Counted from the first letter of the stretch, positions 2,984-19,340 are shown. The stretch is DNA of 64,000 nt from Frankiales bacterium (GCA_025966135.1 JAOPVP010000035.1:64078-128077), one strand, 5' to 3'. Notes: a model not told the origin generated them from the sequence alone. Numbers and translations: made by a program.

Positions 2984-4026
2984 GGCAACCTCCGTCCACC
3001 GCTGGCGACGAACCGGCCCGCGATGCCGCTGTGCGGCGCGAACCGGTGCAGCTCCCGGGTGAGTTGCGGGGCGGTCCAGGCCCGTGGGGGACGGGCGGCA
3101 CGAGGGGTGAGGAGCACGGCAAAGAGCTCGGGAACGCCCTCACCGGCCGGCCGTGCAGCCGTACGGTGCAAGGCGGTCGGCAACCACAGATACTGCGCGA
3201 ACGCAAGCAGCCGGTCCAGTTCGGGGGAGAGCCCTTCGGCTTGGCCGCACTTGTCCCACTTCGTGACCACGAGGTCCAGGGGAACTCCGGGCGGGATGTC
3301 GTCACCTTCGGCGAGGGCGCGGATCAGGGTGCGGGTTCGCGTCAGAGTGGCATTCTGCGCGGCCGGGGTTAGCAGCTTCTCGCCGTCGACGAGCACCAGC
3401 ACCCGTGTGGCCGATCGCAGCAGGGGCCGGTAGTCGACCGGGTCGTTGAACTCGATCAGCGTGCGCGCGTGCTCACCGGAAACGTCGCCAAACAGCAAAT
3501 GCCGCCGGTTGCAGTCCGCGTCGCGGACGGCCAGGTGCAGCGCGATGCGACGGGTGTTCTGGCTGGTGCGCTGCGTCTTCTCCTCGCCATGTCCCGACTC
3601 GTGTGTCGCGTCGAAGCTGCGGGCTTCGAACCCGAGCAAACTTAGCGAACTCTCGAACGCCCAGCCCGCGAGTGGGGCGCGGGCAATCTGTTCGTAGATC
3701 GAGGCGAACAGTGTGGTCTTGCCTGCCTCGGCTTCCGCGACGGCCACGATGAGGTCTACCGGATACTGGGCCATGACGGCACTGGCTTCGTCGGCGGTGA
3801 GGGCTTGGCCGGAGTGCGTGGAAACCGGTGCATGCGCGAGCTCCAGCCGCCGCCGTCCCCTGCCTGATGACGGCGCGGGATCGGTCTCGGCAGAACGCGA
3901 TGTCAGCGCCGGTGCGTCGTTGTCGGCGTCTTCGTCGACCAGGGTGTCGTCCCCGTGGTCGTCGTCGGGTTCGCCGGTCAAGGTGTCGTCGGTGTCGATG
4001 TCGTCGCCGGTAGGCGTGGTGGTCAT
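2980..4026 (-). CDS. P-loop GTPase, paralog 2 of a double-GTPase pair, with acidic disordered N-terminal tail
   Basis: G1 AEAEAGKTT, G3 FGDVSGE, G4 VVTKWDK. The true start is the ATG at 4026, which overlaps the upstream stop (ATGA at 4023-4026). The 592-aa track ORF (to 4758) runs through the upstream gene in another frame and is Arg-rich junk there. Confidence 0.8.
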   Translation of the reverse strand: MTTTPTGDDIDTDDTLTGEPDDDHGDDTLVDEDADNDAPALTSRSAETDPAPSSGRGRRRLELAHAPVSTHSGQALTADEASAVMAQYPVDLIVAVAEAEAGKTTLFASIYEQIARAPLAGWAFESSLSLLGFEARSFDATHESGHGEEKTQRTSQNTRRIALHLAVRDADCNRRHLLFGDVSGEHARTLIEFNDPVDYRPLLRSATRVLVLVDGEKLLTPAAQNATLTRTRTLIRALAEGDDIPPGVPLDLVVTKWDKCGQAEGLSPELDRLLAFAQYLWLPTALHRTAARPAGEGVPELFAVLLTPRAARPPRAWTAPQLTRELHRFAPHSGIAGRFVASGGRRLP

Positions 4027-5015
4027 GCCAGGGCTTCCCAGGCGCGCAGCATCATGGCCTGACGCAGGCTGTGTCGCGCCTGCCGTTGCGGGTCGTCGAC
4101 GCCGTTCGGGAGGGATGCGATGAGGAAGGAAACCGGCTCGGGAGCAATGAGCGGTTCGAGCGCGACGGCCTCCGGTTGGTCGCTGAAGGGTGTTGCGGCT
4201 AGTAGCTGGTCGAGGAAGGCGTCGGCGTGCATCGGTGCGGGTAGCAGGGTGGTGCAGGCGGCGAGCTCTCGGGCCGCCAGGACGGCGGTAATAGGCGCGG
4301 CGAGCGTGGCCCAGGGCCGGTCGAGCGTGTTGCTGGCACCCGATAACAGCCATCCGACGTAGTTGCCTTCTTCGGCGCAGATGTCGATGGCCCGCTCGGC
4401 CCATCTGCTGACCTCGTCGACCTGCTCGAGAGTCTTGTCGAAGCCCAACTGAACGTACGTTGCGAACTTGGCGAATGCCGTCGACACCGTCTCCAACGTG
4501 ATACCTGTCTCCGCAGGCATCGCCGCGGCGATCGCCGTCGCCGTCTGCTTGCTCCAGATCTGGATCTTGGGCGCTTCCGGTGGCAACGCGAGTGCTCGTC
4601 GTTGCTCGGCCAACGTGCTGAGCCGATGCTCCGCGTAGCTCGTCAGATCCGGGACGAGGGGTACCCAGCCCAAGAGTCCGGCGAGAGCGCAGCCGTACCC
4701 CGCCAGCGTGCTTAAGCGGTCCTCGTCCTGGTCTCCGTCGAGGATCTCCCACAGGCAAGCCCCGGCCAGGACAGCGGCTTCCCGGTCGTTGTCACGCATC
4801 CGGAAGGTGTTGTCCGCGGCCTTGATCGCGTCCCGGAACCAGATCCCCCGGTCGGCGGACTGTCCTTGTGGGTGGGCGATGGCGATGAGGTCGAGGACCT
4901 GGGCCCCGGTAAGCCCCCCGACGACGTCGTTAGCCCCGACCTCTCGGGCCTTGAGGACGTCTCCAGCGAGCGCGATGCCGACCTCGGCGTGCCAGTCAGC
5001 GAACAGCTTGTTCAT
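4023..5015 (-). CDS. All-helical 330-aa protein (GASH-like, GTPase-associated system helical protein)
   Basis: Clean ORF with normal amino-acid composition. ATGA overlaps at both ends (5012-5015 and 4023-4026). No catalytic motif is visible. The family name is from memory only. Confidence 0.55.
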   Translation of the reverse strand: MNKLFADWHAEVGIALAGDVLKAREVGANDVVGGLTGAQVLDLIAIAHPQGQSADRGIWFRDAIKAADNTFRMRDNDREAAVLAGACLWEILDGDQDEDRLSTLAGYGCALAGLLGWVPLVPDLTSYAEHRLSTLAEQRRALALPPEAPKIQIWSKQTATAIAAAMPAETGITLETVSTAFAKFATYVQLGFDKTLEQVDEVSRWAERAIDICAEEGNYVGWLLSGASNTLDRPWATLAAPITAVLAARELAACTTLLPAPMHADAFLDQLLAATPFSDQPEAVALEPLIAPEPVSFLIASLPNGVDDPQRQARHSLRQAMMLRAWEALA

Positions 5016-6361
5016 GTCGTCCTTTCCTGCCCGCGGAGGGTCGCCGCGGCGATCCGCGCAGCCAGAAGCTGCCGGGTTGCTTCGTCGTGCACGCGACTCA
5101 TTACGTCGAGAATCATCGTGACGTGGTCCTTAGTGCGGTCCTCAACTCTTAGGAGCCCGCAGTCGGTGAGCACTTGCTCCTGGTCCGGTACGGCCAGATC
5201 GAGTAGGTCCCTGTAGAGCCGTCGTTCAGCGTCCACGTTGCCCTCCTCGTCGACCAGCGGTGGCCGACTGTCCGCACCGGCTGACGCATCCTCGTCGACG
5301 TCGATGCGCTCAGTGCATAGTGCCGCAGGGTCGGCCGGCGGAGGGCAGTGCGGCACCGATACGTCAGAGGGCGCTGACGGTGCAGGTATTAGCGGTAGCG
5401 GCAGTTCTTCGTGGTGCGCCTGGCCCTCGCCGTGCCCGGATCGGAATTCGTTCCACTCCGGCCGCAGGACACGCTGATAGATGTCCAGTAGGAGAACGGC
5501 GTGGCCGTGGTCATCGCCGCGCACGTCGAAAGTGAGCCAGTTGTAGGTCGGGTGCCACCCAGGCGGGTCCTCCTCGGGGTGCACCGCGCCGGCGATGATT
5601 TCCAGGCAGTCGTTGACGCGCTGGATGCGCTGGTCGTGCCGGTGCCCGCACAGCAGAGCCCACGCCTTGCCCTTGATCCGGTCGCGAATCTCGACACGAT
5701 CACGGCAGTCTTCTGGGCCGTGGTGCGCCAGGAGGAGGTAGATCGCGCCGGGGGTGTCACGCGGGAGCACCGTCTGGGTCCGGCCGACGACAAGGCTGCC
5801 GTCGGTGTCGTCGCCATCACTGTTGAACACGGTGGTCAGCCCGCGTACGGCCAGGTGGTACCCGCGGGGCAGCCCGATCGTGGCCTGCCACGGCTGGCCG
5901 TTGGCGGCCACCTCGCACCGATACCCGAGGGCGAATTCGTTGTAATTGGCGAGGGGCGCGAGCAGCGGGGCGCCTGGATCCTCAAGGAGGGTGTCTACCA
6001 GCGCGGTGACGTCCGGTACCGGGCACGTCCGCAGGCCCTGGCGGGCGGTCCGCGCAGAGGGGGAGATCAGCGGCCAGTGCACATCGTGGTTGCCGGGCAC
6101 GGTGAGGACTTGGCAGTTCGCGGTGCCGACCAAGGCAGCGACCTCGTCCAGCCAGGTCTTGGCTCGACCGTACTCCGCCTCGTCCCCGCTGAAGGCGATG
6201 TCTCCAGTGACGACGAGTGCGGTTGCTGGGCCGAGTCTTGCTTTCATCCGCTCCAGGTCGCGCATCAGCTCAACCCGAACGCCACGGTTCCGTTCGGCCG
6301 CGGCGTTGGTCTTGCCGGTGAAGTGGATGTCGCTCAGGTGAACCAATACAGCAGGCTCCAC
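5012..6361 (-). CDS. Calcineurin-like metallophosphoesterase with C-terminal helical extension (candidate effector)
   Basis: Motifs VHLSDIHF, VVTGDIAFSG, PGNHD, LLAHH, LCGHRH. GTG start at 6361 is preceded by GGAAGGAG about 10 nt upstream. Confidence 0.85.
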   Translation of the reverse strand: MEPAVLVHLSDIHFTGKTNAAAERNRGVRVELMRDLERMKARLGPATALVVTGDIAFSGDEAEYGRAKTWLDEVAALVGTANCQVLTVPGNHDVHWPLISPSARTARQGLRTCPVPDVTALVDTLLEDPGAPLLAPLANYNEFALGYRCEVAANGQPWQATIGLPRGYHLAVRGLTTVFNSDGDDTDGSLVVGRTQTVLPRDTPGAIYLLLAHHGPEDCRDRVEIRDRIKGKAWALLCGHRHDQRIQRVNDCLEIIAGAVHPEEDPPGWHPTYNWLTFDVRGDDHGHAVLLLDIYQRVLRPEWNEFRSGHGEGQAHHEELPLPLIPAPSAPSDVSVPHCPPPADPAALCTERIDVDEDASAGADSRPPLVDEEGNVDAERRLYRDLLDLAVPDQEQVLTDCGLLRVEDRTKDHVTMILDVMSRVHDEATRQLLAARIAAATLRGQERTT

Positions 6362-7287
6362 TCCTACGCGCTCCTTCCGGCACTGACGCGGCGCCCGTCG
6401 ACGTCACATGTTCTGGACAGGCTGGCACTGTGCCACACCGCACCGACATCCAGCCCCCGTCTTGCCATACCGGGCAAGCTGCCCGGGTAGAGCTGGGAGA
6501 AGTACTGACCGTCGGGGGTCGTCGGCGCGCAACCGGGCGAGCACCAGTGGTCCAGCCCTGGCGTGAGCAGCGCCCAGGATCCTGGTACGACCGATCGAGC
6601 GGGGCGTGCCTCCTTGGGCCATGTCGTTCACCACCGAGTACTCCTGTGATGTCCCGCTCGGCAAAGGGCGGTCCGACCAGAGAGGTCTGCACCGAGGGGC
6701 GCCGCCGGGCGGCTCGCCCGGGGCGGGTAGCTGACCTTCGGTGTGGAGCTTGGAGAAGCTGCAACGTGACTGACAGTGACGCCCGTTCGTGCCAGCGCGG
6801 CGGTTGGAAAAGCTTGTCGGGGTGCAGGTAGCGCGGGGCCTCATGGACTAGGCGCAGGACGGTTGGGGGGTTCCTCCAGCGGGTCGACGATCTTGACCGG
6901 AAGTTCCTGGGGTCTGGCCACCGGTCAGCGTTGGTCGTGCAGCAGCTGCTCGAGGGTCGGGCCCGCGGAACCGGTCGCACAGGGGTAGTCGACGGACTGG
7001 CCTGAGCTCGAGGGGCCGTTTCCAGACGCTGGAGGGCGCTGGTTGGCAGTGGCGAACCCATGCCAACGAGGCCCTGAGAGCCGTGGCGGTCCCCCAGGGC
7101 GCGTGGATGAGCCCGGCGGCTGCGGGAGCGTGTCCTCACGCGCCCGGAGCCGCACTCGGGGATGATGGCAGGGCCTCGACGAGCGTTGTCGACGGCTGGT
7201 GTCCGAGGTGCCGTTGACTTGCCGAGTGGCTCGTCCGGGCACTGTGCGTCTCGGGCGCCTGAGGGGCGCCCACGGAGAAGAGGGATC

Positions 7288-8385
7288 GTGACGGAGTTCA
7301 GCGACAAGCAGGTGGTCTACTCGACCGCGCTGGGCAGTCAGGTCTGCGGTGACTCCCTGGAGTTGCTGGCACAGATGGCCGACGAGTCCGTCGACCTGAT
7401 CGTGACCAGCCCGCCCTTCGCCCTACTGCGGGCCAAGAAGTACGGCAACGAGGACCAGGCCGACTACATAGCATGGTTGGCGAAGTTCGGCGAGGCGGCT
7501 CACCGGGTGCTCAAGCCCACGGGCAGCCTGGTGATCGACCTCGGCGGTGCGTACGTCAAGGGCAGGCCGACACGGTCGCTCTACCAGTACCGGGTGCTGC
7601 TTAAATTCGTTGATGACCTCGGGTACCACCTGGCGGAGGAGTTCTTCTGGTACAACCCGTCCAAGCTGCCGAGCCCGATCGAGTGGGTGAACAAGCAGCG
7701 AATCCGTGTCAAGGACGCGGTCAACACCGTGTGGTGGCTGTCCAAGACGGAGCGGCCGAAGGCTGACGTCAACCAGGTACTGGTGCCGTACTCGGCGCGC
7801 ATGAACAAGCTCCTCGAGAACCCGGCGGCGTTCTACGATGCCAAGGCCCGGCCGAGCGAGCACGACATCAGCATGAAGTTCGGCCGCGACAACGGTGGGG
7901 CCATCCCGACGAACCTGCTGACGATTCCGAACACCGACTCGAACTCGGGCTATCTGCGGACGGCACGAGCGCTGGACATCCGGTCGCACCCGGCCCGCTT
8001 CCCTGAGGGGCTGCCGGAGTTCTTCATCAAGTTCTTGACCGAACCGGGCGACCTGGTGGTCGACATCTTCGCCGGGTCGAACACGACCGGCATGGTGGCC
8101 GAGCGGTTGGGCCGTCGCTGGCTCGGGTTCGAGCTTGACCGCGAGTACGCGGCCCTATCGATTCTGCGGTTCGTGTCCGACCGTCCGTTGGACGTCGTCC
8201 GGACGCTGTACGACCTCGCGCAAGAAAAGTGGATCGACCTAACTCCATCTCCGGCGCCGTCTGCGGCTGTCGCTGGGGCTAGGACGACGAGTGGTCGCAG
8301 ATCACGCACGAAGAAGGCCGTCGTCGAGGCGGCCGTCGAGGTTATGGCTGGTCTACCAGTCAAGAAGCGCGCACGTCGGACCTGA
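7288..8385 (+). CDS. Beta-class N4-cytosine/N6-adenine DNA methyltransferase (SPPF type, M.PvuII-like)
   Basis: Motif IV DLIVTSPPFAL lies N-terminal and motif I VVDIFAGSNTTG lies C-terminal. GTG at 7288 is preceded by GAGAAGAGGGA. The track start at 7162 adds an Arg/Gly-rich leader that is unlikely to be real. Confidence 0.9.
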   Translation: MTEFSDKQVVYSTALGSQVCGDSLELLAQMADESVDLIVTSPPFALLRAKKYGNEDQADYIAWLAKFGEAAHRVLKPTGSLVIDLGGAYVKGRPTRSLYQYRVLLKFVDDLGYHLAEEFFWYNPSKLPSPIEWVNKQRIRVKDAVNTVWWLSKTERPKADVNQVLVPYSARMNKLLENPAAFYDAKARPSEHDISMKFGRDNGGAIPTNLLTIPNTDSNSGYLRTARALDIRSHPARFPEGLPEFFIKFLTEPGDLVVDIFAGSNTTGMVAERLGRRWLGFELDREYAALSILRFVSDRPLDVVRTLYDLAQEKWIDLTPSPAPSAAVAGARTTSGRRSRTKKAVVEAAVEVMAGLPVKKRARRT

Positions 8386-8519
8386 CCGGGTCGCCGTTCG
8401 GCGGGCGGGCAGTCAGCCCGACGTAGTCAATGTCGTGCCCGCGCCCGTCTGAGTTCCTCATCGGAGAGCACAGGGAGGCTCCCTGGAAGCGTTGACCGGC
8501 CGGTACCTCATACACGTCT

Positions 8520-8915
8520 CTACAGCTGGGCTGCCGCTGGGGTGTACATGAGGTCGGCGAAGTGGGTGACTGCGCCGCTCTGCAGGTCCTCCCACAACTT
8601 CACGAGGCCCAGGCTCATCAGGGTCTCAGCGATGACGTACGGGTCGGCCGCGTCGGGGTACAGAGCCGCCATCAGAGAGCGGATGTCGCCCGTGGGGTCG
8701 AAGGACCCAACGTTCTGGTTCTGGCCGTCGCCGGCCTTACCGAAGCCTTGGCCCCGAACGGGCTGCAGCTCACAGCGGATGGCGTAAGCGAGGCCGACGC
8801 GGATGACCTGCTGGCCTTCCTCGAACGGGAACCTGTCGCGGATGGCGTCCTTGGCGATCTCTGCGGGTCCGGTCAGCGCAATGTTGACGCGCCCACCGCC
8901 TGTCGGCTCCGTCAC
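8520..8915 (-). CDS. Small DndE-like protein (uncertain)
   Basis: 131 aa. The GTG start overlaps the stop of the upstream ATPase (GTGA at 8912-8915). Size, position after a DndD-like gene and the sequence pattern (..VIRVGLAYAIR.. / ..ETLMSLGLVKLWEDL..) recall DndE. Not verified. Confidence 0.45.
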   Translation of the reverse strand: MTEPTGGGRVNIALTGPAEIAKDAIRDRFPFEEGQQVIRVGLAYAIRCELQPVRGQGFGKAGDGQNQNVGSFDPTGDIRSLMAALYPDAADPYVIAETLMSLGLVKLWEDLQSGAVTHFADLMYTPAAAQL

Positions 8916-10873
8916 GTGTTCCTCAGCTCGGTGATGGTGGTGTTGTTGGCGGTGACTCGCTTGAGCTCGTACTCCGCAAGGAGCCGGCCGTGCAGCTGCT
9001 TGCGTGCGGTCGCTCGGTCAAGCTCTCCTTCGTGGACGAGCAGGAAAACCTGCTTGGCCAGGACGGTGAGCTGCCCGACGACGGCCTCGACGTGCTCGGG
9101 ATCCAGTCGACCGAACGGGGAGTCCATGACGACGGGACCGGTGATCGGGGAGCACTCCTGGAGCGCGCCGATGAGGCTGAGGGCCACGAGGTGCTCGTAG
9201 CCGGCGGAACGGTCCTCGACGGTGTTGCCCTTGCTGTCCAGGATGCGGAGGCCGTACTGGTCGTTGATCGTGAGCTTGGCGAAGTCGACCTCTGCGCGCA
9301 TGTTGCGGAACAGCTTGGAGGCCGTCTCCTGCACGTCCTCCTTGAGCTTGTCGCGGTAGGCGACAACCGCCTGGTCGAACAGTGCCGCGAGCGCTGCGGT
9401 GACCTTCTCGCGGGCAAGGGTCGCGGGGTCGGCGGTGCCGGCGCCGGCGGCCTCGATGGAGGCGCGCAGCTTGTCGATCTGGCCGCCCATGTTGTTGTAG
9501 CTGTTGGTCTGCTCGAGGAAGACCTCCTGCGCCTTCTCGAGCCGAACGGCGAGTTCACTGCCGCGCTTGGCGAGCGCGTTGAGCTCCTCTGCTGGGGTGT
9601 CTCGGAGCTGGTCGTCGAGCTGCTCGAGATCGTCCTTGGTGTCGGCGACTTGAACGTCGAGCTCGCGGTAGGCCCTCTCGAGCGCACGCAGGTCAGCTCG
9701 GGCTTGCTCGTCGACGATGCGGCGGAGCGTCTTGACGCGGGCGGCCGCCGCGTGGACGTGGTCGTTCAGCTCGACCAGGGAGCTGCCGTTGGCCGGTGCC
9801 AGGACCTGCTCGAGGTGGTGACGGTGGGGTTCGTCCAACGGTGACGCGCACGCGGGGCACGCCTGCTCGCCGCTGCCGCGGAAGGTGGTGCTCAGGGCGA
9901 CCGCGACGGTGACCGTCGACAGCCGCTCACGGTCTTGCTCCAGCTCGGCCTCGAGCTCGTCGACGGCTGCAGTGAGGGGATCGACGAGGACGGCCCGCCA
10001 CGCGTTGGCGAGGCCGGCGGCAAACGCGGTCTTCGCCTCCTGATGCCTGTCCTGCAGCTCCTTGAGGCTCTCCCGCATCAGGTCACGACGTCCGAGCAGG
10101 TCCAGCTTGCTCTGCTGCTCTGCGAGCGCCTCTTCAACTTGGCGTGCCTCAACCTGGAGCGTCGCGATGTGCTCGCTCTCGGTGTCCTTGTTCGCCCGGT
10201 AGCTGCTGCGCATGGTCTGCGCCTGTTCCAGGGCTTGTCCGAGTTCGCGGGTACTGCGTTCGCGCTTGGCGGCCTCAGCGATCGCCTTTCCCGCTTCCTC
10301 CGCCAGGGTGCGCATATCTCGCGCCGCGTTAACTACGACCGGAACGCCGAGGACCTTCTCGATCGACTCGCGCAGCGGCGAGCCCGTAGGGGCTTCGTCG
10401 TCGACGAGCCGCTCGTACTGGTCGAGAAGCTCACCATCGAACAGAAAGAACTGCTCGATCTCAGGGGGCATCAGTTCCGCGAGCCGCTTGCTGGTGTCGG
10501 AGGCTGTGAGGGTGACGCCGTCCTTGACGAGCGTGACGTCCTCACTGAGGGCACCGCCCTCGTTCACGATGGAGCGGGTGAGGTCCCAGCGGGAACCCTC
10601 TGCGGTGAAGCCGAGCCGGACCCGGCACGTGACGGCTGCGCCGTCCGCTTCGGCGAGGGCGTCACGGTTTACGAGCCGGTCCGGGGTCACGGCGCGGCTG
10701 CCGCGGCTGCGGGCAGCGCCGGTCCACGCCCACCGGATGGCGTTGAGGAAGCTCGTCTTCCCCTTGCCGTTGCGGCCGTAGACGATGACGACGCCTTCCC
10801 CGTCCGGGAAGGTCATGGTCTGGGTGCCGGCGAAGACACGGAAGTTCGCGACCGTGAGCTCGTGGTACCTCAT
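8912..10873 (-). CDS. DndD/SMC/Rad50-like ABC ATPase with long coiled coil and central CxxC
   Basis: Walker A GRNGKGKTS, signature-like RSAGYEHLVALSL, Walker B/D-loop PVVMDSPFGRLD. Heptad-rich middle region with CPAC at its centre. ATGA overlap with the upstream small gene at 10870-10873. Confidence 0.85.
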   Translation of the reverse strand: MRYHELTVANFRVFAGTQTMTFPDGEGVVIVYGRNGKGKTSFLNAIRWAWTGAARSRGSRAVTPDRLVNRDALAEADGAAVTCRVRLGFTAEGSRWDLTRSIVNEGGALSEDVTLVKDGVTLTASDTSKRLAELMPPEIEQFFLFDGELLDQYERLVDDEAPTGSPLRESIEKVLGVPVVVNAARDMRTLAEEAGKAIAEAAKRERSTRELGQALEQAQTMRSSYRANKDTESEHIATLQVEARQVEEALAEQQSKLDLLGRRDLMRESLKELQDRHQEAKTAFAAGLANAWRAVLVDPLTAAVDELEAELEQDRERLSTVTVAVALSTTFRGSGEQACPACASPLDEPHRHHLEQVLAPANGSSLVELNDHVHAAAARVKTLRRIVDEQARADLRALERAYRELDVQVADTKDDLEQLDDQLRDTPAEELNALAKRGSELAVRLEKAQEVFLEQTNSYNNMGGQIDKLRASIEAAGAGTADPATLAREKVTAALAALFDQAVVAYRDKLKEDVQETASKLFRNMRAEVDFAKLTINDQYGLRILDSKGNTVEDRSAGYEHLVALSLIGALQECSPITGPVVMDSPFGRLDPEHVEAVVGQLTVLAKQVFLLVHEGELDRATARKQLHGRLLAEYELKRVTANNTTITELRNT

Positions 10874-11055
10874 GGTGCTGCCGGCTTGAGGTGCTCCGTG
10901 ATGGCCTGGGTGACTTGGTCCCGCGCGCGCAGACGGTCGTCGTGGCTGGAGGCCTCGATCTCGAGGATCCGGGCGACGAGCTCTGCTGGGAGCTCGGGGA
11001 AGGACCGGGCACGGACGGCTTCCACCGTCTCGCCAAGCGCTCCTAGGTCCCTCAT
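10870..11055 (-). CDS. Small (61 aa) helical protein of unknown function
   Basis: ATG at 11055 is preceded by GAGGAA. An alternative TTG at 11103 would overlap the helicase stop. Wedged between the helicase and the ATPase. Confidence 0.5.
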   Translation of the reverse strand: MRDLGALGETVEAVRARSFPELPAELVARILEIEASSHDDRLRARDQVTQAITEHLKPAAP

Positions 11056-11099
11056 GTGATTCCTCGTTCTCTCGGATGGTCCGCTTCTAGCTGCGGGTG

Positions 11100-13220
11100 T
11101 CAAGCTTCTGCCTCCTCGTCGTCTTCGATGCCGGAATCGAGTTCGGCGTAGAGGCCCGCCAGGTCGATGCCGACGTCGAGGCAGGCCTGTTCGAGCAATA
11201 GTCGGGAGTCCGTGTTCAGGGCGCTGCGGGCGAACTGGCCGGCGCGGGCGAGTTCCCCCCAGACCAGGGCGCGCGTGGTGTCGTCCACCTCGCCAGCCGG
11301 TAGCACGATCAGGTCATAGATGATGGCCAGCGTCTTCGTGCCCGAGGTGCGCAGGACGCGACCGCGCCGCTGGATGAACTCGCGAGGGTTGCGGGAGGAG
11401 GCGGCGATCATGGCGTGGCTGCATTCGGGGATGTCGACGCCCTCGTCAAGACACTTGATCGAGACGACGACCCCGCCGTTCACGCGGAAGTGACGAAGGG
11501 TGGCCTTCTTGTCGGCCTCCATGTCGGAGTGGTAGGTGAGCGTGTCGATGCCGGCGTCACGGAGCCCGGCGGCCACTAGGTCCATCTGGTCGATGTCGTC
11601 GCAGTAGACGAGCCAGTGGTCGCCCGTGGTGTAGTGCGTACACAGCGTTGCGATCACGGTCGGTGCCTTGGCGGCCGCCTTCTTGGCGATGCGTGCTCTC
11701 TGCATGATCATGACTTTGACGGCGGGTCTCTTGAGCGCGTCGGCTCCGCTGCCGCCGGCGGCAATGGCTCTGCCGATCTTGCGGGTCAGCTCCGCCCACT
11801 GCTGCTGCTCTTGGTCGTCGAGCCGGACGGTCTGCGGGTGGTATAGGTAGTTGCAAAGCACGCCGTCTCGCATTGCGTCCTCAAGCGAGTAGCGGTGGAC
11901 GATCCCGCCGAAGTAGTCGAACAGGCGCTCGGTGCCCTCGGGGTCACCGGCACGTTCGGGGGTGGCTGACAGCCCCAGCCGGTAGGGCGTGTCGAGCTGG
12001 AGCAGCCCTGCGTAGGACGGAGCTCCCAGTCGGTGGACCTCATCTCCGACGACCAGCAGCTCGCTCGCCGTCCGAACCTGGCTCAGGAACCGCTCGGAGG
12101 CCGCGGTGGGAGCGACTGCCACGATCACGCGCTGCGTTCGGGTATCGGTGACCCAGGTGCTGAGCTTGTCCTTCCAGTCCACGTTGCCGGCTCCGCACAG
12201 GTGGACCCGCCGGCCAGCCGGGCCGAGCTCTTCGCGCAGTTGCGCGAACCACTGGGTCGCGACGAGCTCGGTGGGGGCAATGACGATGGTGGGGCCGACG
12301 TGCTGGCCGATCACGGTGATGCCGGTGACGGTCTTGCCGGAGCCGGTCGCGTGAGCCAGGATGCCGCGCTTGCCGTTCGCTTCCCACGCGGCGATGCCGG
12401 TGACCTGCTGCTTGCGCAGTGGACGCCCGGTCGGGGTGACCTGGGTGGTGGCGACCCGGTCTTTCACGGCCGCGAGCTCATCGACGATCTCGCGCCAGTC
12501 CGTTCCTTCGGTTGCCTGCTGCAGAACGACCTGGAGGCCCGCGGGGAGGCTAAGAACCTCGATGCCGTGGGCCTGCCCTGCCCACAGGTGGTCGAACCGC
12601 CGTACGGCGTTGCTGACCCTCTTGGCGTCCCGGTCCCCCGCCCAGCTGGGCCAGGCGTCGATGGACTCGACGTTGCCTCGGGCGCTGGACAGTCCCAGGT
12701 AGCTCTCATTGGCCGAGCCCCGAAAGCCGATCGCGTTCCCGACCTTGTCGTGGAACAGACCGACCTTGTCGTGGAACATCCGGCGGTCGCCGGGGTCCTT
12801 CGCGTCTTCGAGCCTGGCCAACTTGACCTCGACGATGCCTGCGGCGACCAGACCGGCGAAGGCCAGGGCGGGCTTGCGGAGTTCGTAGCGACCCAGGAGC
12901 TCGTCGAGCTCGCCGGCGAGCGTGCTGGCGAGTTCAGCGTCGTCCCGGGCCGCGTAGCCGCGGCCGGCGTTTTCGGTGTCCACAGGACTCAATCGCGGGG
13001 AGCAGAGCAGCCGGATCTTTCCGTGACGTTCGACGAAGCCCCGCAAAGCTGGCCAGTACAGCAGGAAGGCTCCGCTGGAGAAGAAGCCGGTGATGCGGTC
13101 GTAGCGATCCGCCCCGCCCATCGCTGGTCCGTAGAAGTCGCTGGCTAAGTCCGAGGCGTCGCTGCTGTAGTCGGGCTCCGGAGTCCACAGGGTGCCGTTC
13201 CACCCCAGGGCCGCGGTCAC
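11100..13220 (-). CDS. PLD-family (HKD) nuclease domain fused to SF2 (ResIII/DEAH) helicase
   Basis: N-terminal FHDKVGLFHDKVGNAIGFRGSANES (HxK...GSxN). Helicase motif I AHATGSGKT and motif II VVGDEVH. C-terminal helicase motifs QRRGRVLR. Confidence 0.9.
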   Translation of the reverse strand: MTAALGWNGTLWTPEPDYSSDASDLASDFYGPAMGGADRYDRITGFFSSGAFLLYWPALRGFVERHGKIRLLCSPRLSPVDTENAGRGYAARDDAELASTLAGELDELLGRYELRKPALAFAGLVAAGIVEVKLARLEDAKDPGDRRMFHDKVGLFHDKVGNAIGFRGSANESYLGLSSARGNVESIDAWPSWAGDRDAKRVSNAVRRFDHLWAGQAHGIEVLSLPAGLQVVLQQATEGTDWREIVDELAAVKDRVATTQVTPTGRPLRKQQVTGIAAWEANGKRGILAHATGSGKTVTGITVIGQHVGPTIVIAPTELVATQWFAQLREELGPAGRRVHLCGAGNVDWKDKLSTWVTDTRTQRVIVAVAPTAASERFLSQVRTASELLVVGDEVHRLGAPSYAGLLQLDTPYRLGLSATPERAGDPEGTERLFDYFGGIVHRYSLEDAMRDGVLCNYLYHPQTVRLDDQEQQQWAELTRKIGRAIAAGGSGADALKRPAVKVMIMQRARIAKKAAAKAPTVIATLCTHYTTGDHWLVYCDDIDQMDLVAAGLRDAGIDTLTYHSDMEADKKATLRHFRVNGGVVVSIKCLDEGVDIPECSHAMIAASSRNPREFIQRRGRVLRTSGTKTLAIIYDLIVLPAGEVDDTTRALVWGELARAGQFARSALNTDSRLLLEQACLDVGIDLAGLYAELDSGIEDDEEAEA

Positions 13221-13227
13221 TGCGGCC

Positions 13228-13836
13228 TCACGTGGTCGTGTCCGCGATCAGTCGGTCTACGGTGCGCTGCCAGCGCAGCTCGAGGGCGCGCTCGAGGTTG
13301 CCCGCGGTAGCGGCGACGACGGTCTCTCGCAGGCCGGAGTTGCGCATCCGTCGCTCCTGCTCGGCCAGCCCCTTGGTCATGGCCGAGTACAGAGTGGAGT
13401 CCAGAACTTGGCAGCCTCGCGAGAAGGCTATGCCGTCGCCGATGTCGTAAACGCCCGCGTCCCAGAGGGCGTAGACCCCGAGGCTCTGCGAGTAGCCGGC
13501 GAGCACGACGAACGCGCCGTTCGACCAGTCGAAGTGCGCGGGCTGCTTGCCGCTGTTGAGCGTGATCTGGATGCGGAACGCGCCCATCTGCCTCTCGGAG
13601 GTGTGAGTCGTAAGGTTGAACAGGTACACGCGCAGGAGGGGCGGCAGCGAGTCCACGGCATGGAGCACGAGCGGCTTGTACAGCGCCGCGTTGGGCGTTG
13701 CTGGCGTGGCTGCGCCCTCGAGGTCGCGGATCATCTGCTGATGCGCCCGGGTCGTGCTCGCGGCAGCCCTGACCCGCGTGGCGCTCAGCTCGACCAGCGA
13801 CTCCATACCTGGCAGCTTCTCGCACTCTGCGCTCAT
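13228..13836 (-). CDS. Hypothetical protein, first gene of the helicase/ATPase operon (possible DNA-recognition module)
   Basis: Clean ORF ending 7 nt before the helicase start. The start is uncertain (TTG 13857, ATG 13836 or ATG 13806). No catalytic motif recognised. Confidence 0.6.
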   Translation of the reverse strand: MSAECEKLPGMESLVELSATRVRAAASTTRAHQQMIRDLEGAATPATPNAALYKPLVLHAVDSLPPLLRVYLFNLTTHTSERQMGAFRIQITLNSGKQPAHFDWSNGAFVVLAGYSQSLGVYALWDAGVYDIGDGIAFSRGCQVLDSTLYSAMTKGLAEQERRMRNSGLRETVVAATAGNLERALELRWQRTVDRLIADTTT

Positions 13837-14430
13837 TGGAAGCGACAACGCGCTCAACGATCAGGACTCGGGCATGCTCCCCAACGTCCCGACTCCAGCG
13901 CAGCGGGCAGGTGGGCCCGTCCCGCGCCTGCCGGGCGGCCTTCCAGCCCCCGTTGTGATCTGTGCCGCCCGGCAAAGACGTGTCAGAGTGCGGGCGGACC
14001 CGGCACAGTGGTCGGCATTACGAAGGACCGGCTCTCGGTGGGCAGCAAGGGCAGCCACCACCGAGGCTCGTCTGGGTACTACAGCAACCAACGTGGCCTC
14101 TTCGAGCTCCGCTCCCGCACGCACGACGCAGCCGCCTGCTTCGCAGCCGAGGAAGGCTGGTGGCTGCATTTGCTGGGACTGGGTGCCCTCGGACCACGAC
14201 GAGGTGGGGTCACGGTCGTCGGGAAGCCGAACCCGCCGTGGAGCGCTCGCTCCGATGAACGCGCCCGTGGTAGAGGCCGTGCGGCCCCAGCCCCTGATAT
14301 CCCAACCAGCCGAGTAGGCGACGGAACAAGACTGACACTGGCGCGATCAAGTTCATCTGACACTGTTCTCGTTACCACGACGTGAAACTTGCAAAGTCCC
14401 CCGACAGACTCACGAGCATGGAGGCGCGAC

Positions 14431-14964
14431 ATGCCGGCAGCGGACCCCCCACGGGTGCTCTGCGCCGTCCTCGCCAGTCCTCCGCTGACCAGCGGGGGAC
14501 GGACCCGCGGCGCGTTGGCGCTCGCAGCCGACCTGCTCGGCTGCGACATCGTCCGCATCGTCAACCTCCTGGCCCTGCCGACGCGCGACCTACCCGAGAT
14601 GTCGGAGGTGGGTGCCGAGGGCGGAGCCTGGGAGGCGGGGCGTCCGGAACTCCTGGCAGGGCTGCAGGCCGGCGATGCACTGTTGGCGGCCTGGGGGGTG
14701 TCGGCTCTGACCGGGGCGGCCCGAGTTCATCATCGGTCACAGGTGGCCTGGCTGGTGGACGCCGCAGCGGAAGTGGGCTGTGATCGGGTGTGGACCGTCG
14801 GACCGCAGCCCCGTCACCCTTCGAGATGGCACCAATACGTCAGTGACCGGCACCGTCGAACGAGCACCGCAGCGACCACGGCGGAACGCCTGGGCGAGGT
14901 ACTCCTGCAGCGCGAGTGGGCGTCGCTTCTGCCTACGGGACCTGCAGCGCACGCTCGAAGATGA
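14431..14964 (+). CDS. DUF1643-like protein
   Basis: ATG at 14431 is preceded by GGAGGCG. Pattern ..RIVNLLALP..ALLAAWG..PRHPSRW resembles DUF1643 as I remember it. Confidence 0.6.
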   Translation: MPAADPPRVLCAVLASPPLTSGGRTRGALALAADLLGCDIVRIVNLLALPTRDLPEMSEVGAEGGAWEAGRPELLAGLQAGDALLAAWGVSALTGAARVHHRSQVAWLVDAAAEVGCDRVWTVGPQPRHPSRWHQYVSDRHRRTSTAATTAERLGEVLLQREWASLLPTGPAAHARR

Positions 14965-15186
14965 GGTCCGTTGGCGCGAAAATCAGTTCGTCGCCGTCCT
15001 GCTTCGAACCTCTTGGTTATAAGCCGGGTGGAGTGCAGCCGCGAGCAGTCGGATGCCCCGGTCAAGTCACGGGCAGCGAGAGCCATCTCGGGTGGTTCGG
15101 CTCGGCGATTCTGTCTTACGAGCAGTCGTAACGTGCTGCGATGTCAAGCACGAGTCCGTCTCATCGCGGGATAGTGCCGGATCGGG

Positions 15187-16551
15187 TCAGCTCGATTCCT
15201 CCAGCAAATCCGCACGTGAGGGTTCCGAGTTCATCTTGGCGCGAGTGGCGATCCGTTCGGCCAGTTCAGCGAGCCGTCCGACGTCGCGTACGCCCTCAGT
15301 CATCTCCGCCTGGGCCGCCTCAAGCGCCGCACGATGCGTTGCAACGGAACCTTCAGGCGCCACAGAGCCAAAGCCGGTGGTTACTGAGACGTGGTCGGGC
15401 TCAACAGCGATGCGCAACGTGTAGCGACCTGGGTACTCCTGGCCCGGCACCTCCCTGGAGACCTGACACACCACTTCCACCAGCGGTCGCCTCTCCAGAC
15501 TCAGCAGTCGGCAGGCGACAAGCGAGTCAAGCAAGTGCGCGCCCTCGAATCGAACAGCGTGCAGAAGCGGACGTCGCGCGTCGGACTCGTCGTCGTCGCC
15601 GGCCTGCTCTCCGACCTTAAACTTGGCGACCGTCAAGTTGAAGTTCTTGAAGCCGCTGGCGGGGAGCCGCGTGTGCAGCAAGTCCAGCAGAAACAAACTC
15701 CCCGGGTTGAGCTGTGGAACGTTGCCCTGCACGTCTGCTGGGACCAAGGACAGCGCCGACGCTGTCGTTACGTCCGCTGCGGTTTCAAGTGCCCGAACCG
15801 CGGCACGAGCCACCAGCGAAGAAGCCCCGGAGACGACCAGCGGGGCCCCGGGGGCGATGCGCACCGATGCATGGTGATTGGTCGGAACCGCGCGGAGGGT
15901 CGGACGCGAGTTGATCTCGTCCAAGTCGGTTTGGTAAGCCTTATACGAACCCGCGAGATTGAATGCGCCTGCGGCGACGCGATCTACAGACTCGAAGACG
16001 AACCACCTGGCCACACCGATACGGATGTAGCGGCCCAGCACGTAGTCCAGTTTGCTAAGGACCTGCTTAGTGACGAGCGGATCGGCCAAAGGGAACAGAC
16101 GACCGACGTGGCCGCGCTCCGGAGGTGGGGCTTCTTCGTTCTGAAGTACGAGACGCGCTACCTCCTCTGAATCCCAGGAGTAGGCGCGTCCAATTCTTGT
16201 CGCCAACACTTCCGCCGAACCGACTGAACGCAATTCACGCTCTTCGGCCAAACGACGCAAGGTGCTGGCCTTGAGACCAATCAATGCCTTCTTGATGACC
16301 TCACGCTCAACCTCGTCAGCGTCGAGGCCGCCGGTGTCCGATTCGACAGCAGGGACCACCTCATCCTCGAGGGCCTCGCGAACGGCAATCGACAGGTAGT
16401 CACTTACATCCGCAGCCAAGCGGATGCTGTCGTCACGACCGCCTTTGGATCGCAGCTGCAGTCCGAAGTTTCGCGCCTCGCTCAGGAGGTCCGAAACCGC
16501 TCGGTCGAGATCCTCTGCATGAAGCACCATGCGGTTCGCCCTAGCCACCAT
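15187..16551 (-). CDS. Hypothetical 454-aa protein with an HeH/SAP/Rho_N-like motif
   Basis: Normal composition. LKASTLRRLAEERELRSVGSAEVLATRI resembles a SAP/Rho-N helix-extension-helix. The start overlaps the upstream gene end by 11 nt. Confidence 0.7.
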   Translation of the reverse strand: MVARANRMVLHAEDLDRAVSDLLSEARNFGLQLRSKGGRDDSIRLAADVSDYLSIAVREALEDEVVPAVESDTGGLDADEVEREVIKKALIGLKASTLRRLAEERELRSVGSAEVLATRIGRAYSWDSEEVARLVLQNEEAPPPERGHVGRLFPLADPLVTKQVLSKLDYVLGRYIRIGVARWFVFESVDRVAAGAFNLAGSYKAYQTDLDEINSRPTLRAVPTNHHASVRIAPGAPLVVSGASSLVARAAVRALETAADVTTASALSLVPADVQGNVPQLNPGSLFLLDLLHTRLPASGFKNFNLTVAKFKVGEQAGDDDESDARRPLLHAVRFEGAHLLDSLVACRLLSLERRPLVEVVCQVSREVPGQEYPGRYTLRIAVEPDHVSVTTGFGSVAPEGSVATHRAALEAAQAEMTEGVRDVGRLAELAERIATRAKMNSEPSRADLLEESS

Positions 16552-16882
16552 CTGTGACCTCCTCCCGCACGAACTGCTGCAGCACGACCCAGCCGGCAGC
16601 AGTGCAGATCTTCCACCATACGTCTGCGTCGGACACTTCCATCGATGCCGTCTTCAGGACGTGCTCCTCCAACTCACCCTCCACATCCAGAGTGGCGGCG
16701 ATGGCCTGAACCAATCCCTCATTGGGAACCTGTCCATCGGGTGAAAACGTCAGCAAGCGAGCTCTGAAGGCTTTGATCGCGGCCGCATAGTCGGCCTTCC
16801 GGAACTCCCGCCGGGCAACCCACTTTTTGAGTCCGAGAACCCGGGCCGTGTCCGCGCAGTGAACGGGGATCCGGACGCCCAC
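16541..16882 (-). CDS. Hypothetical 113-aa protein
   Basis: GTG at 16882 lies 1 nt after the TAA stop of the upstream membrane-protein gene. An alternative TTG is at 16912. Confidence 0.55.
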   Translation of the reverse strand: MGVRIPVHCADTARVLGLKKWVARREFRKADYAAAIKAFRARLLTFSPDGQVPNEGLVQAIAATLDVEGELEEHVLKTASMEVSDADVWWKICTAAGWVVLQQFVREEVTDGG

Positions 16883-16883
16883 G

Positions 16884-17204
16884 TTAGCTCTCGGTCCGGA
16901 GGCCGAGAGCAACCAGCAAGGCGAACACCGGCTGACTCACGATCGCAGCAAGCAGTGCGATCGCAACCAGCTCACTCGTGAAGTCCCCTGGCCAAGGGCA
17001 ATACAGCTGGGACCAAGCAGCTCCAGCGCCGACGGCTACCAACGAAAGAAGGGCCACCACGAGACCTGCAAGCCAACCTGCGGGGAGAGGCAGATTCGGC
17101 AAACGTCGTTGCTGGGAACCCAAGACGTTGAAGATCAGACCTAGCACGGCCAAGAGCAAACTCTCCGTGGAGAGCAACGCAGCGATGGCGTCCGAAGGCG
17201 TCAT
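16884..17204 (-). CDS. Small three-pass membrane protein
   Basis: Three hydrophobic segments (LLLAVLGLIFNVLG, WLAGLVVALLSLVAVGAGAAW, LVAIALLAAIVSQPVFALLVALGL). ATG at 17204 was chosen; the track start at 17303 adds a non-membrane leader. Confidence 0.55.
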   Translation of the reverse strand: MTPSDAIAALLSTESLLLAVLGLIFNVLGSQQRRLPNLPLPAGWLAGLVVALLSLVAVGAGAAWSQLYCPWPGDFTSELVAIALLAAIVSQPVFALLVALGLRTES

Positions 17205-17600
17205 CACTGCACTCGCCACCTGGTCCCCCTCGTCACCCACCCATGGCGAAATCTGCCGGGTGGCAGATCGTAACTTAGGTGGACACATCCATAGGTCCGG
17301 CACGGCTCATGCGTGTCGCGAAGGCGCTTGCTCACCCGCTCAGCCCGCCGAGTGGTGCTGCACCTCCCGACCGACTGGCCCTGGGAAGCGGACTGGACCC
17401 AGATGGCGAACGGCGCTCGGCACGGGCCTCCGGCCGCGGCCTGACCCATCCACCCAGTCCGACCAGGACCAACCGGAACACCACGTGGAGACCACCGGCC
17501 AGCCGGGCCGACAAGCACGCCCTCAACCGGTGAGTACCGCCGCACCTCGCTCAAGCCTCCAACAGATCGGCTGACGGTGGATCCAGGCTGAGGCGGGCGG

Positions 17601-17710
17601 CTGTGCCCGCACGGCCGTGGTCTGCCGACCGTCGGCTGGTCACCCGTGGTGACGCTGGAGGTATCCCCGCAGGGGGATCCATCTGTGTGAACGTCGGCTC
17701 GGCTGCTCGT
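17601..17710. repeat. Copy A of a ~110-nt duplicated structured element downstream of an rhs-tip/immunity cassette
   Basis: Aligns with 19341-19460. The 38-nt core GCCCGCnCGGnCGTGGTCTGCCGACCGnCGGCTGGTCAC has 3 mismatches. It is followed by a GC hairpin (17660-17680), CTGTGTG and CGGCTGCTCG. Confidence 0.7.
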
Positions 17711-17794
17711 CGTCGCTGCCACCACCGTGACGAGCACGCAGACGCACCTGAGCGGGCGATTCAGGCCGGGCACGGGGAGGGCAACGGCAGAGGC

Positions 17795-18103
17795 TCAGGC
17801 GAAATCGCGCCAGATTGCGCCACCCTCAGATGGCTCAAAGCCCGACTGTCCGGGCCATGGCACGGCACCGAACTCCCAACGGAAGAGCAAGTTGACGAGC
17901 ACCGCGATCAAGGCACCGTCTGCCCAGCGTATCCATCGTGGCAACCCCATAATGGGCCTCGTCACAAAGATCTGAATCGGCAAGAGGAGAAGCCAGGTCA
18001 CGATCGCCAACGGAACAACGATCCAAAGCAGGACCGCCCGCAGGAGATAAAGGCCCAGTCCCGCCAACACCATTCTCGCGATTCGCATGGTCGCCCCAAA
18101 CAC
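17795..18103 (-). CDS. Small membrane protein, candidate immunity for the orphan Rhs tip
   Basis: Hydrophobic 102-aa ORF starting 3 nt after the orphan tip stop (GTG 18103, or ATG 18088). Confidence 0.6.
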   Translation of the reverse strand: MFGATMRIARMVLAGLGLYLLRAVLLWIVVPLAIVTWLLLLPIQIFVTRPIMGLPRWIRWADGALIAVLVNLLFRWEFGAVPWPGQSGFEPSEGGAIWRDFA

Positions 18104-18105
18104 GT

Positions 18106-18655
18106 CTAGAAGCTAGATCGCTCATACCACGGGACTCGATGCAGCGGGTTTGGCAGCACGCCCTTCACTGCCCGCGTGAGGTTGCCTCTCACTCCACAAC
18201 GCGACGTGCAGCGTTGCATGCCGTGTCGAGTCTGATGATAGCCCCGCACGACCCGGGCAGAACCAGTGAACATCTGACTGCCGCCGTACCCCGCCCCAAG
18301 CGCTCCGAGAGGCGCCAAGGGCGATCCCATCACCGCTACACCGCCCACGAAGAGGCGTGCACCTGTGTAGACCTTGTAACTTCCGTAAGCGATGTTCACG
18401 GTTCCCGCGGCGAACGCCCCAATCGTGGCTGCCGAGATAGCGCTTGGCCTTGTTCCAACGGCAGCGTGGGCCGCACCAGCGTCCGTCGAGGTCGAAGTTG
18501 TTGATGGGGTCGGCGTTGATGTAGTCGTAGGCGTTCGCTGAGCCGCCGGGGATGGGGTCGACTTGCAGGAACCTTCCTAGGACTGGGCTGTAGAGGCGGA
18601 CGCCCATGAGCACGACGCCCCCGAGCGCGTCACCGGATCGTTGTTTGCCGCAACA
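18106..18655 (-). pseudogene. Orphan Rhs C-terminal core plus toxin tip, no N-terminus, frameshifted
   Basis: GKQRSGDALGGVVLMGVRLYSPVLGRFLQVDPIPGGSANAYDYINADPINNFDLDGRW parallels the end of the full-length Rhs. After ..WNKAK the reading frame must shift by 1 nt near 18441-18443 to continue as AISAATIGAFAAG... Confidence 0.7.
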
Positions 18656-19340
18656 CAGACGCCCACCACGACCTACCGCTGCGACACCGCCATTGACCGA
18701 CGCTGACCTGCAGCAATGCACCCCAGAACCCCGACCAGCACCTGGTCCGTGAGGGCCGGGAGCCCGACGCGAGTTCCGGCTGCAGGACCGGCCGTGCTCG
18801 ACGCCCTGACGGCCGCTCAGGCCGTCGACACCGACGGCCGCGCGCTGACCCTGGGCGGCTGAGGAAGGACCCGCCCACGCGCCCACGACAGCCCTCGGGG
18901 CGGCGGCGGGGTGGGCGGTCATGAGCGTCAGTCTGGCAGCCCCAGCGGGTTCGCGGCGGCAAGCTCGACCAGGACGTCCCGGCCGCGCCGAGCAGCGCCC
19001 TCGGGGGCGTGTGTGAGGACTTTCTTTACGACTATCAAGGCCGACGGCTCCGGGCGGCCGCTGCGCGGCCGTCCTCGCCCCCGGCAACGACCAGAGCAGG
19101 AGCCGGGGCGCCTCTACTCCCGGGACGTCCCGCATCCCGTCCCGCGTCACGTCCCGGAATCCGCCCGGATCACGTCCCGGATCGCCTCACTGGCAAGGAT
19201 CTTGGCAACCTGAGTGCCCTTCGCGCGGACCGCTGGCAAGCCCGCCGGCAACCCCCTCGTGGTAGCGGGCGCGACTCTTGCCCACAAGCGAGCGGGCAAG
19301 ACGATGGGCAAGACCAACCGCGTCGCTCAGGCGGCCGTCA

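Follow-up and report, generated by a model that had tools for sequence, protein, structure and literature searches.

A methylase-coupled PbeABCD-type gene cluster from a Frankiales bacterium, a candidate restriction-modification-like antiphage system

The genes that partner dndCDEA in a haloarchaeon were given the name pbeABCD by Xiong et al. (2019; PMC6459918), who found that each of the four pbe genes is needed for a defence that lowers virus plating about 10^4-fold. A virus carrying phosphorothioate (PT) modification escapes, cleavage of viral DNA was not detected, and defence depends on modification of the host, loss of which is not toxic. Deletion of PbeB in this archaeal system abolished defence, again without toxicity. 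Among 320 "solitary" pbeAC pairs, which occur without dnd genes, 155 lie near methyltransferase genes (PMC6459918). Rakesh et al. (NAR 2024; PMC10853773) equated PbeABCD with their earlier CxC ABC-ATPase-DndE systems, whose listed components are an HKD nuclease with an SF2 helicase, a small protein, a CxC ATPase, a DndE cognate, C5 or permuted N4 methylases, and MTaX1. They proposed for these systems either discrimination like that of restriction-modification (R-M) or a suicide response, and in their account the modification module, which "can recruit other nucleobase modifications," has the DndD/CxC-DndE pair as its DNA-scanning core. Here we describe a gene cluster in a 64,000-nucleotide stretch of DNA (the window) from a Frankiales bacterium metagenome-assembled genome (MAG; GCA_025966135.1, JAOPVP010000035.1:64078-128077). 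The cluster appears to be a real and intact antiphage locus of a kind already described by comparative genomics, and we are highly confident that it belongs to the CxC ABC-ATPase-DndE (PbeABCD-type) family in its methylase-coupled form.

The gene set carries this assignment. A five-gene operon encoding MTaX1, PbeA, PbeB, PbeC and PbeD is flanked by a methyltransferase (MTase) gene and a DUF1643 gene (Table 1). The components expected of the methylase-coupled form all have counterparts here: an HKD endoDNase fused to an SF2 helicase (PbeA), a small protein between the helicase-nuclease and the ATPase (PbeB), a CxC-clade ATPase (PbeC) whose coiled coil of some 400 residues bears a predicted cysteine zinc hook at its apex, an adjacent cognate DndE-like protein with two modelled ribbon-helix-helix (RHH) units (PbeD), and a cytosine methylase, which in this family is of the C5 or circularly permuted N4 type, together with an MTaX1 gene. 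An earlier note on this DNA, made from the sequence alone, had seen a methylase, a PLD-helicase, a DndD-like ATPase and a DndE-like protein at the locus and had suggested either a novel system or one resembling Hma or MADS. Its protein calls are upheld below. Its novel-system alternative is not, as the architecture is already present in PMC10853773 and the association with methylases in PMC6459918.

Scans with PADLOC and other hidden Markov models (HMMs), a check proposed in that note, gave matches to PbeA (2.1e-184), PbeC (1.1e-151) and Pfam MTaX1 (2.4e-18). The PbeA match spans residues 16–671, near full length, and Pfam recognizes ResIII and Helicase_C in the same protein; TIGR04095 scores 323 bits, under its cut-off of 600. 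A sequence search of the PDB returned XPB/Rad25-type helicases (3e-23) and, weakly, SauUSI (7clg; E 3e-8), and PADLOC mREase_IV also matches at 6e-9. The motifs GSGKT, DEVH and QRRGR are intact, and a single HKD motif, FHDKVGLFxDxxGxxIGFRGSxNE, is kept in an alignment of relatives. The call of a PLD nuclease joined to an SF2 helicase is therefore secure, and the presence of only one HKD motif per polypeptide implies that two PbeA molecules are needed to form one active site. An apparent 7-aa tandem duplication at this motif (FHDKVGL/FHDKVGN) was considered and rejected; there is no insertion, and the segment aligns column by column with relatives. For the ATPase, PADLOC places PbeC well ahead of DndD (3e-52), and the DndD equivalog TIGR03185 reaches 135.3 bits, below its cut-off of 245.85; Pfam matches are AAA_23 and SMC_N. 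The DndD/Rad50-like call was thus correct, with PbeC as the best family. A CPAC motif near residue 340 of the 653 lies midway along the coiled coil, and CPxC is kept in relatives; it appears to be the zinc-hook feature for which the "CxC" ATPases are known.

Neither PbeB nor PbeD matches a family in PADLOC, Pfam or NCBIfam, and three small proteins of the locus have no match in these collections even at an E value of 10. An alignment profile of PbeD also returned nothing from PDB sequences. The AlphaFold2 (AF2) model of PbeD, made with 32 homologues (pLDDT 83.8), shows a beta-alpha-alpha topology that occurs twice, and DndE structures account for each of the 17 top-ranked PDB matches in Foldseek (4lrv, 7x4e, 5wtu; probability 0.90–1.00, target TM score 0.60–0.72). 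This agreement supports at fold level what had been called DndE-like from the sequence, and PbeD is predicted to be a DndE cognate and a tandem RHH DNA-binding protein. PbeB was assigned by position and tblastn. In 10 of 11 related loci a homologue with 37–49% identity (about 55% for PbeA) is encoded at the corresponding place, and in locus L009 a 67-aa gene is called there. The protein looks helical, is alignable, and weakly resembles (E 0.008) a small protein of locus L018 that RefSeq names "DNA modification system-associated small protein."

The methylase had been described as an M.PvuII-like SPPF methyltransferase, and this description holds. It matches PADLOC MTase_II (8e-146) and Pfam N6_N4_Mtase (4.9e-42) and aligns with M.PvuII (PDB 1boo) over 293 aa without a gap at about 58% identity (E 6.9e-122). 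The enzyme is of the beta class, with the SPPF motif N-terminal and FxGxG C-terminal, and it ends in a basic tail of about 65 aa. Its mark may be placed at CAGCTG. Avoidance of this site as the footprint of PvuII-like restriction was considered and rejected, for CAGCTG is over-represented in the window, with 41 sites observed and 26.6 expected.

Evidence that these genes work together comes from related loci, of which seven, all actinobacterial, were found in a one-genome-per-species scan and four, from metagenomes, through homologues of the small proteins (n = 11; Streptomyces five times, Kocuria, Microbacterium and four metagenome contigs). All 11 carry the MTase, at 61–78% identity, with MTaX1, PbeA, PbeC and PbeD. 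Counting the window, there are 12 independent loci, which come from at least four genera and several metagenomes; the MTase occurs with the restriction (R) operon in all of them, and MTase identity tracks that of the R genes. The gene set takes six arrangements across these loci (the window, L001–L007, L009, L010, L016 and L017). The block from MTaX1 to PbeD is never interrupted; the MTase and DUF1643 genes shift in position and strand. All seven genes run in one direction in the Streptomyces loci; methylase and operon converge in the window, L009, L016 and L017 and diverge in L010. DUF1643 may follow PbeD, overlap or lie beside the methylase or, as in the window, stand upstream of MTaX1 on the opposite strand. 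Relative to the Streptomyces layout, the five-gene block of the window is inverted with respect to the flanking methylase and DUF1643 genes; no convincing inverted repeats that would explain this orientation were found at the block boundaries. L008, a separately assembled 1.4-kb read-archive contig retrieved in a PbeD look-up, has the same convergent PbeD/methylase junction. The unbroken five-gene block across shuffled gene orders is strong evidence of functional linkage, and a fixed R block beside mobile MTase and DUF1643 genes suggests two modules, an R operon of five genes and a modification (M) unit consisting of the methylase with or without DUF1643. The association also crosses phyla, as a mobilizable alphaproteobacterial plasmid has a 42%-identical M.PvuII-family MTase directly upstream of PbeA, the small protein, the ATPase and PbeD. 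The earlier note had allowed that the genes might not co-occur in other genomes, or that the methylase might be an orphan in an unrelated neighbourhood; the return of the same set in 11 other loci, with the methylase each time, speaks against both.

One of the Streptomyces loci (L001, Streptomyces sp. NPDC050315, 8055–15191) shows signs of its own history. All seven genes there fall under a threshold of G+C content at third codon positions (GC3) that the flanking genes pass, and an FtsK/SpoIIIE-family gene lies about 5 kb downstream. These features would fit a recent arrival by horizontal transfer, possibly aboard an integrative element of actinomycetes.

No DndA, DndB or DndC/PAPS_reduct gene was found among about 45 GC3-supported open reading frames (ORFs) scanned across the window, whose sole Aminotran_5-like match is a Cys_Met_Meta_PP housekeeping enzyme. 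The statement that the locus has no cysteine desulfurase and no PAPS-reductase-like gene is accordingly correct within the 64 kb. The Pfam-annotated flanks of L009, L010, L016 and L017 contain no dnd genes, nor do the ten GC3-supported flanking ORFs scanned at L001. The window therefore holds neither the PT-dependent form, in which dndCDEA adjoins pbeABCD, nor a canonical DndABCDE system, to which the subthreshold TIGR03185 score is also contrary. The idea that a DndD/DndE-like pair and a PLD-helicase are coupled here to a methylase is supported by the 11 other loci, with no sulfur genes nearby.

The reading frames themselves are well defined in this DNA of about 67% G+C. The six ORFs proposed earlier are all present and intact with GC3 values of 0.84–0.89, which mark them as genuine coding frames, and the junctions as first read were confirmed in the sequence: a 7-nt gap from the MTaX1 stop to the pbeA start, a 44-nt gap between pbeA and pbeB, an ATGA overlap of pbeB and pbeC, and a GTGA overlap of pbeC and pbeD. 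A GAGGA motif resembling a ribosome-binding site lies 5' of the pbeB ATG at 11055. Some starts have alternatives. The maximal MTase ORF begins at 7162, and homology and GC3 coding signal both begin near 7288; NCBI calls an identical MTaX1 protein at 192 aa, which moves the start to 13806; and the maximal DUF1643 ORF begins at 14389, compared with an NCBI start of 14431. A protein identical to PbeD is in NCBI under locus tag JWM02_1320 of the Frankiales bacterium MAG. Two stretches have no coding signal in the GC3 frame plot, about 900 bp 5' of the methylase (6362–7287) and about 570 bp between MTaX1 and DUF1643 (13858–14430), the latter containing a 32-nt imperfect inverted repeat (14043–14074 / 14144–14175). 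They may be regulatory regions or rearrangement scars. Scans for promoters and terminators yielded nothing of use in DNA so rich in G+C.

Table 1. Coordinates of the methylase-coupled Pbe locus and of the adjacent GTPase-centred system, counted from the first nucleotide of the window
Feature	Coordinates	Strand	Basis
MTase, N4-cytosine DNA methyltransferase, M.PvuII homologue (M module)	7288..8385	+	PADLOC, Pfam, PDB 1boo
PbeD, predicted DndE cognate, 131 aa	8520..8915	-	AF2 fold and Foldseek
PbeC, CxC-clade ABC (Rad50/DndD-like) ATPase, 653 aa	8912..10873	-	PADLOC, NCBIfam, Pfam
PbeB-type small protein, 61 aa	10870..11055	-	Position and tblastn
PbeA, HKD nuclease and SF2 helicase, 706 aa	11100..13220	-	PADLOC, Pfam, PDB
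MTaX1-domain protein, first gene of the R operon	13228..13857 (maximal ORF)	-	Pfam PF20296
DUF1643-family protein, 177 aa (NCBI call), beyond the interval of the earlier note	14431..14964	+	Conservation, PF07799 in relatives
GAP1-N1	60-2171	-	
DO-GTPase1	2153-2983	-	
DO-GTPase2	2980-about 4068	-	
GASH helical domain	4023-5015	-	
Calcineurin-like metallophosphoesterase	5012-6361	-	

The first gene of the R operon had been listed as a 200-aa unknown. The ORF is correct, but the protein is not without a family, as it matches PF20296 MTaX1 ("methylase-associated X1"). Its AF2 model is of high confidence (pLDDT 90.5), and a fold search found no significant neighbour in the PDB or BFVD; hints of a restriction-endonuclease fold were weak and scattered and were not relied on. 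A set of 1.84 billion proteins contains 489 representatives of this small family at 50% identity, most of them stand-alone proteins of about 170–200 aa. Some members are fused to HNH_2, NOV_C, N6_N4_Mtase, HTH_17 or Sigma70_r4 domains, and one 1862-aa protein joins MTaX1 with DUF3427. NOV_C is a restriction-endonuclease-fold domain. At L014, a JGI metagenome contig (2758–5252), the gene for an MTaX1-HNH_2 fusion begins 3 nt after a methylase gene whose product is 57% identical to that of the window. This pair appears to be a minimal two-gene R-M system with MTaX1 in place of a conventional recognition domain. Because of this fusion next to a methylase, and of the other MTaX1 fusions, we regard MTaX1, from its context, as the probable DNA-reading or discriminating module of the restriction side, and the same suggestion is made in PMC10853773. 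A sigma-like protein that ends the alphaproteobacterial plasmid operon was considered as a carrier of MTaX1 and found not to be one.

The earlier note missed a seventh conserved gene just outside its interval. The DUF1643 gene accompanies the system in the window and in 10 of the 11 related loci, 11 of 12 in all, overlapping the MTase gene in L010 and directly adjoining it in L017; no homologue lies within 10 kb in L016. Relatives pass the gathering score of PF07799 (6.7e-5), and DUF1643 is the annotation of many database homologues. The gene appears to be a conserved accessory of the system. In L012, a relative stands alone beside an unrelated three-gene cluster with HATPase_c_3. An alignment profile of the family found nothing among PDB sequences, and a suspected kinship with uracil-DNA glycosylases was dropped after hhalign comparisons with approximate sequences of E. 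coli Mug and Ung proved unsupportive.

We favour, at a probability of roughly 0.6, the reading that this locus encodes a methylation-based, ATP-dependent, R-M-like defence system of the CxC ABC-ATPase-DndE (PbeABCD) family, built from M and R modules. Its foundation is the observed gene set, with its domain identities and intact catalytic motifs, its co-occurrence across shuffled gene orders, and the lack of PT genes nearby. In such a system, an autonomous M.PvuII-family MTase would place N4-methylcytosine (N4mC) on host DNA, usually with DUF1643 alongside, and the invariant R operon would act on DNA that lacks the mark. MTaX1 would serve as a reader that tells unmethylated from methylated cognate sites. 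A dimer of the Rad50-like PbeC, with its zinc hook, would then clamp and scan the DNA together with the tandem-RHH PbeD. PbeA would translocate by means of its XPB-like motor, with two molecules pairing to complete one HKD active site, and DNA would be nicked, cleaved or otherwise blocked in its replication. PbeB might modulate the complex. Our proposals are the sequence in which these events occur, the part played by MTaX1, the recognition site, and the choice between cleavage and replication arrest.

Several considerations tell against this interpretation. The abundance of CAGCTG in the window offers no footprint of restriction, although a self-methylating host need not show one. The search for dnd genes in this MAG was confined to the 64-kb window. 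In the literature library searched, no experimental work on the methylase-coupled form of Pbe came to light. MTaX1 has no significant structural relative, and its DNA binding is only predicted. The archaeal results, in which no cleavage was visible, modification was needed and its loss was nontoxic (PMC6459918), would by analogy fit poorly with simple cutting of unmodified DNA. By the same analogy, deletion of the MTase may abolish defence instead of killing the cell, unlike the self-toxicity that had been expected at the outset, and the outcome may be replication arrest, not visible cleavage, with the host mark licensing the system. The earlier judgment that the mechanism of such systems is essentially unknown remains fair.

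Several of these points bear on an abortive infection or suicide mechanism, which PMC10853773 proposes as the alternative for the same systems and which seems doubtful to us. PbeB would restrain the R operon until a phage trigger removed or modified it, PbeA would then degrade host and phage DNA and kill the cell, and methylation would be secondary or a matter of addiction. The small protein that always lies between PbeA and PbeC evolves fast, as its identities show beside those of PbeA, and the PT form of Pbe was without seen cleavage of viral DNA, both of which would suit such a role. In the tested system, however, the PT-modified virus escaped (PMC6459918), and this result points to self/non-self discrimination on DNA, not to a protein trigger. 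The small protein of this locus also aligns well and looks helical instead of disordered, and the MTase is present in 12 of 12 loci. It is unlikely, too, that PbeC and PbeD are a methylase-targeting device, with the pair scanning DNA and recruiting the methylase and with PbeA and MTaX1 alone responsible for restriction. Such a division of labour would accord with the scanning core described in PMC10853773 and with the variability of DndE cognates, which are proposed to set target specificity. Against it, the MTase aligns end to end with the stand-alone M.PvuII and so should need no targeting partner, and it is often on the strand opposite to the operon. The pbeC and pbeD genes appear to be co-transcribed with pbeA, with start/stop overlaps, in every locus, and the archaeal pbeC and pbeD are needed for defence in addition to the organism's own dndD and dndE (PMC6459918).

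The adjacency of methylase and operon could also be coincidental, with the Pbe operon depending on PT modification by dnd genes elsewhere in the genome and the methylase being either an orphan or what is left of a Type II system. The confinement of the dnd search to one window of the MAG leaves room for this, as do the roughly 900 bp without coding signal 5' of the MTase and the orphan look of that gene in Type II terms; PADLOC and Pfam found no Type II restriction endonuclease among neighbouring proteins, although no search was made with the sequences of R.PvuII and C.PvuII themselves. The constant pairing of MTase and R operon in 12 independent loci despite rearrangement, the identities of the MTase that follow those of the R genes, and the inspected flanks (L001, L009, L010, L016 and L017) free of dnd genes make this explanation very unlikely. 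The R-M-like reading with separate M and R modules is the one that we retain. A bolder extension of it is that MTaX1 could be a structurally new reader of N4-methylation state that licenses a Rad50-like clamp and an HKD-helicase, joining Type II specificity to an SMC-style motor, and that DUF1643 could be a dedicated enzyme of N4mC processing or repair. The position of Vsr beside Dcm offers a comparison for DUF1643 beside the methylase. We offer this extension tentatively, as a long shot worth keeping in view.

The surroundings of the locus are those of a defence island. A second conflict system, encoded on the minus strand at 60–6361, lies immediately upstream (Table 1), and GTPase-centred systems of this kind have been catalogued (eLife 2020; PMC7159879). 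The GTPase system and the Pbe system together make the left 27 kb of the window a defence island; the right-hand 37 kb is housekeeping. Within the left part, a 2106-aa RHS-repeat protein is encoded at 19970–26290 (minus strand; Pfam RHS_repeat and CBM96). A downstream ORF at 18122–19150 (minus strand) repeats the RHS C-terminal core motif GG[IV]VLMGVRLYSPVLGRFLQ.DP.PGGSAN.YDY and then has a different tail, so that it looks like an orphan RHS toxin tip or a displaced toxin cassette. The segment at 15000–18500 has a G+C content of 0.61–0.65, compared with about 0.68, and is probably separately acquired DNA. It contains a 454-aa ORF (15187–16551, minus strand) and several smaller ones, for which Pfam, PADLOC and NCBIfam gave no match and the related loci offer no counterpart.

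This locus is not a new kind of system; it is a compact and apparently intact actinobacterial example of the methylase-coupled Pbe/CxC-DndE type. What it adds is the confirmation of the DndE-cognate fold by modelling, the kinship of the methylase with M.PvuII, the shuffling of M and R modules, the recurrent DUF1643 gene, the MTaX1-nuclease fusions, and an MTaX1 family without a solved structural relative. It is useful chiefly as a tractable model of the methylase-coupled branch, since kinship with M.PvuII should make the self mark easy to map and to manipulate. It also gives an entry point to the question raised by the archaeal PT-Pbe system, namely how a Rad50-like ATPase together with DndE-like and HKD-helicase partners stops phage replication, apparently without visible cleavage and with modification required. 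The modularity of M and R, the MTaX1-nuclease fusions and the recurrence of DUF1643 supply concrete hypotheses for experiments.

Overall, the locus shares features with several known systems at different distances. It resembles the PvuII Type II R-M system in its methylase, and that is the only homologue of the M.PvuII, R.PvuII and C.PvuII set found among the neighbours scanned with PADLOC and Pfam; restriction here would come from an ATP-dependent multi-protein module, whereas PvuII uses a homodimeric Type II endonuclease. With SauUSI-type Type IV enzymes and the motors of Type I and III systems it shares the fusion of an HKD/PLD nuclease to an SF2 translocase. SauUSI, however, is a single polypeptide that has a DUF3427 reader and attacks modified DNA, whereas PbeA here has no reader domain and would work with four partner proteins and a protective methylase. 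Hma is likewise a candidate defence operon with helicase, methylase and ATPase genes, but it has three genes (HmaA helicase, HmaB 5-methylcytosine methyltransferase, HmaC ATPase; PMC8565338; Payne et al. 2021), and the six or seven found here include those for MTaX1, a DndE-like protein and a small protein besides an N4-cytosine methylase and an HKD-helicase of the PbeA type. The 20 PADLOC families that match the helicase include none of Hma, so the suggested equivalence fails. MADS of P. aeruginosa is also a multi-gene defence that uses methylation for self/non-self discrimination, but its operon has eight genes, among them those for a kinase and a specificity subunit (bioRxiv 10.1101/2023.03.30.534895). 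Neither domain was found at the locus, and the gene content does not correspond, as judged from the description of MADS and not from MAD HMMs; this equivalence too has to be given up. The DndCDEA-PbeABCD system of Haloterrigena/Natrinema jeotgali A29 (PMC6459918) is far closer, with a homologous cassette in the same order, PbeA-PbeB-PbeC-PbeD (PADLOC 1e-151 to 2e-184), and differs in the partner mark, which is a phosphorothioate there and here is associated with an M.PvuII-family N4-cytosine methylase, MTaX1 and DUF1643. Experimental testing has been confined to this PT form of Pbe. Closest of all are the CxC ABC-ATPase-DndE systems with cytosine methylase and MTaX1, as far as these are set out in PMC10853773 (its ref. 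24 and Fig. 4A iv). The main text of that paper does not mention DUF1643, which recurs in the loci considered here, and the small protein of its systems is "mostly disordered," whereas the one here is helical-looking and alignable. All of the components of those systems are nevertheless present in this cluster, PT genes are absent from the window, and we see no difference in kind.

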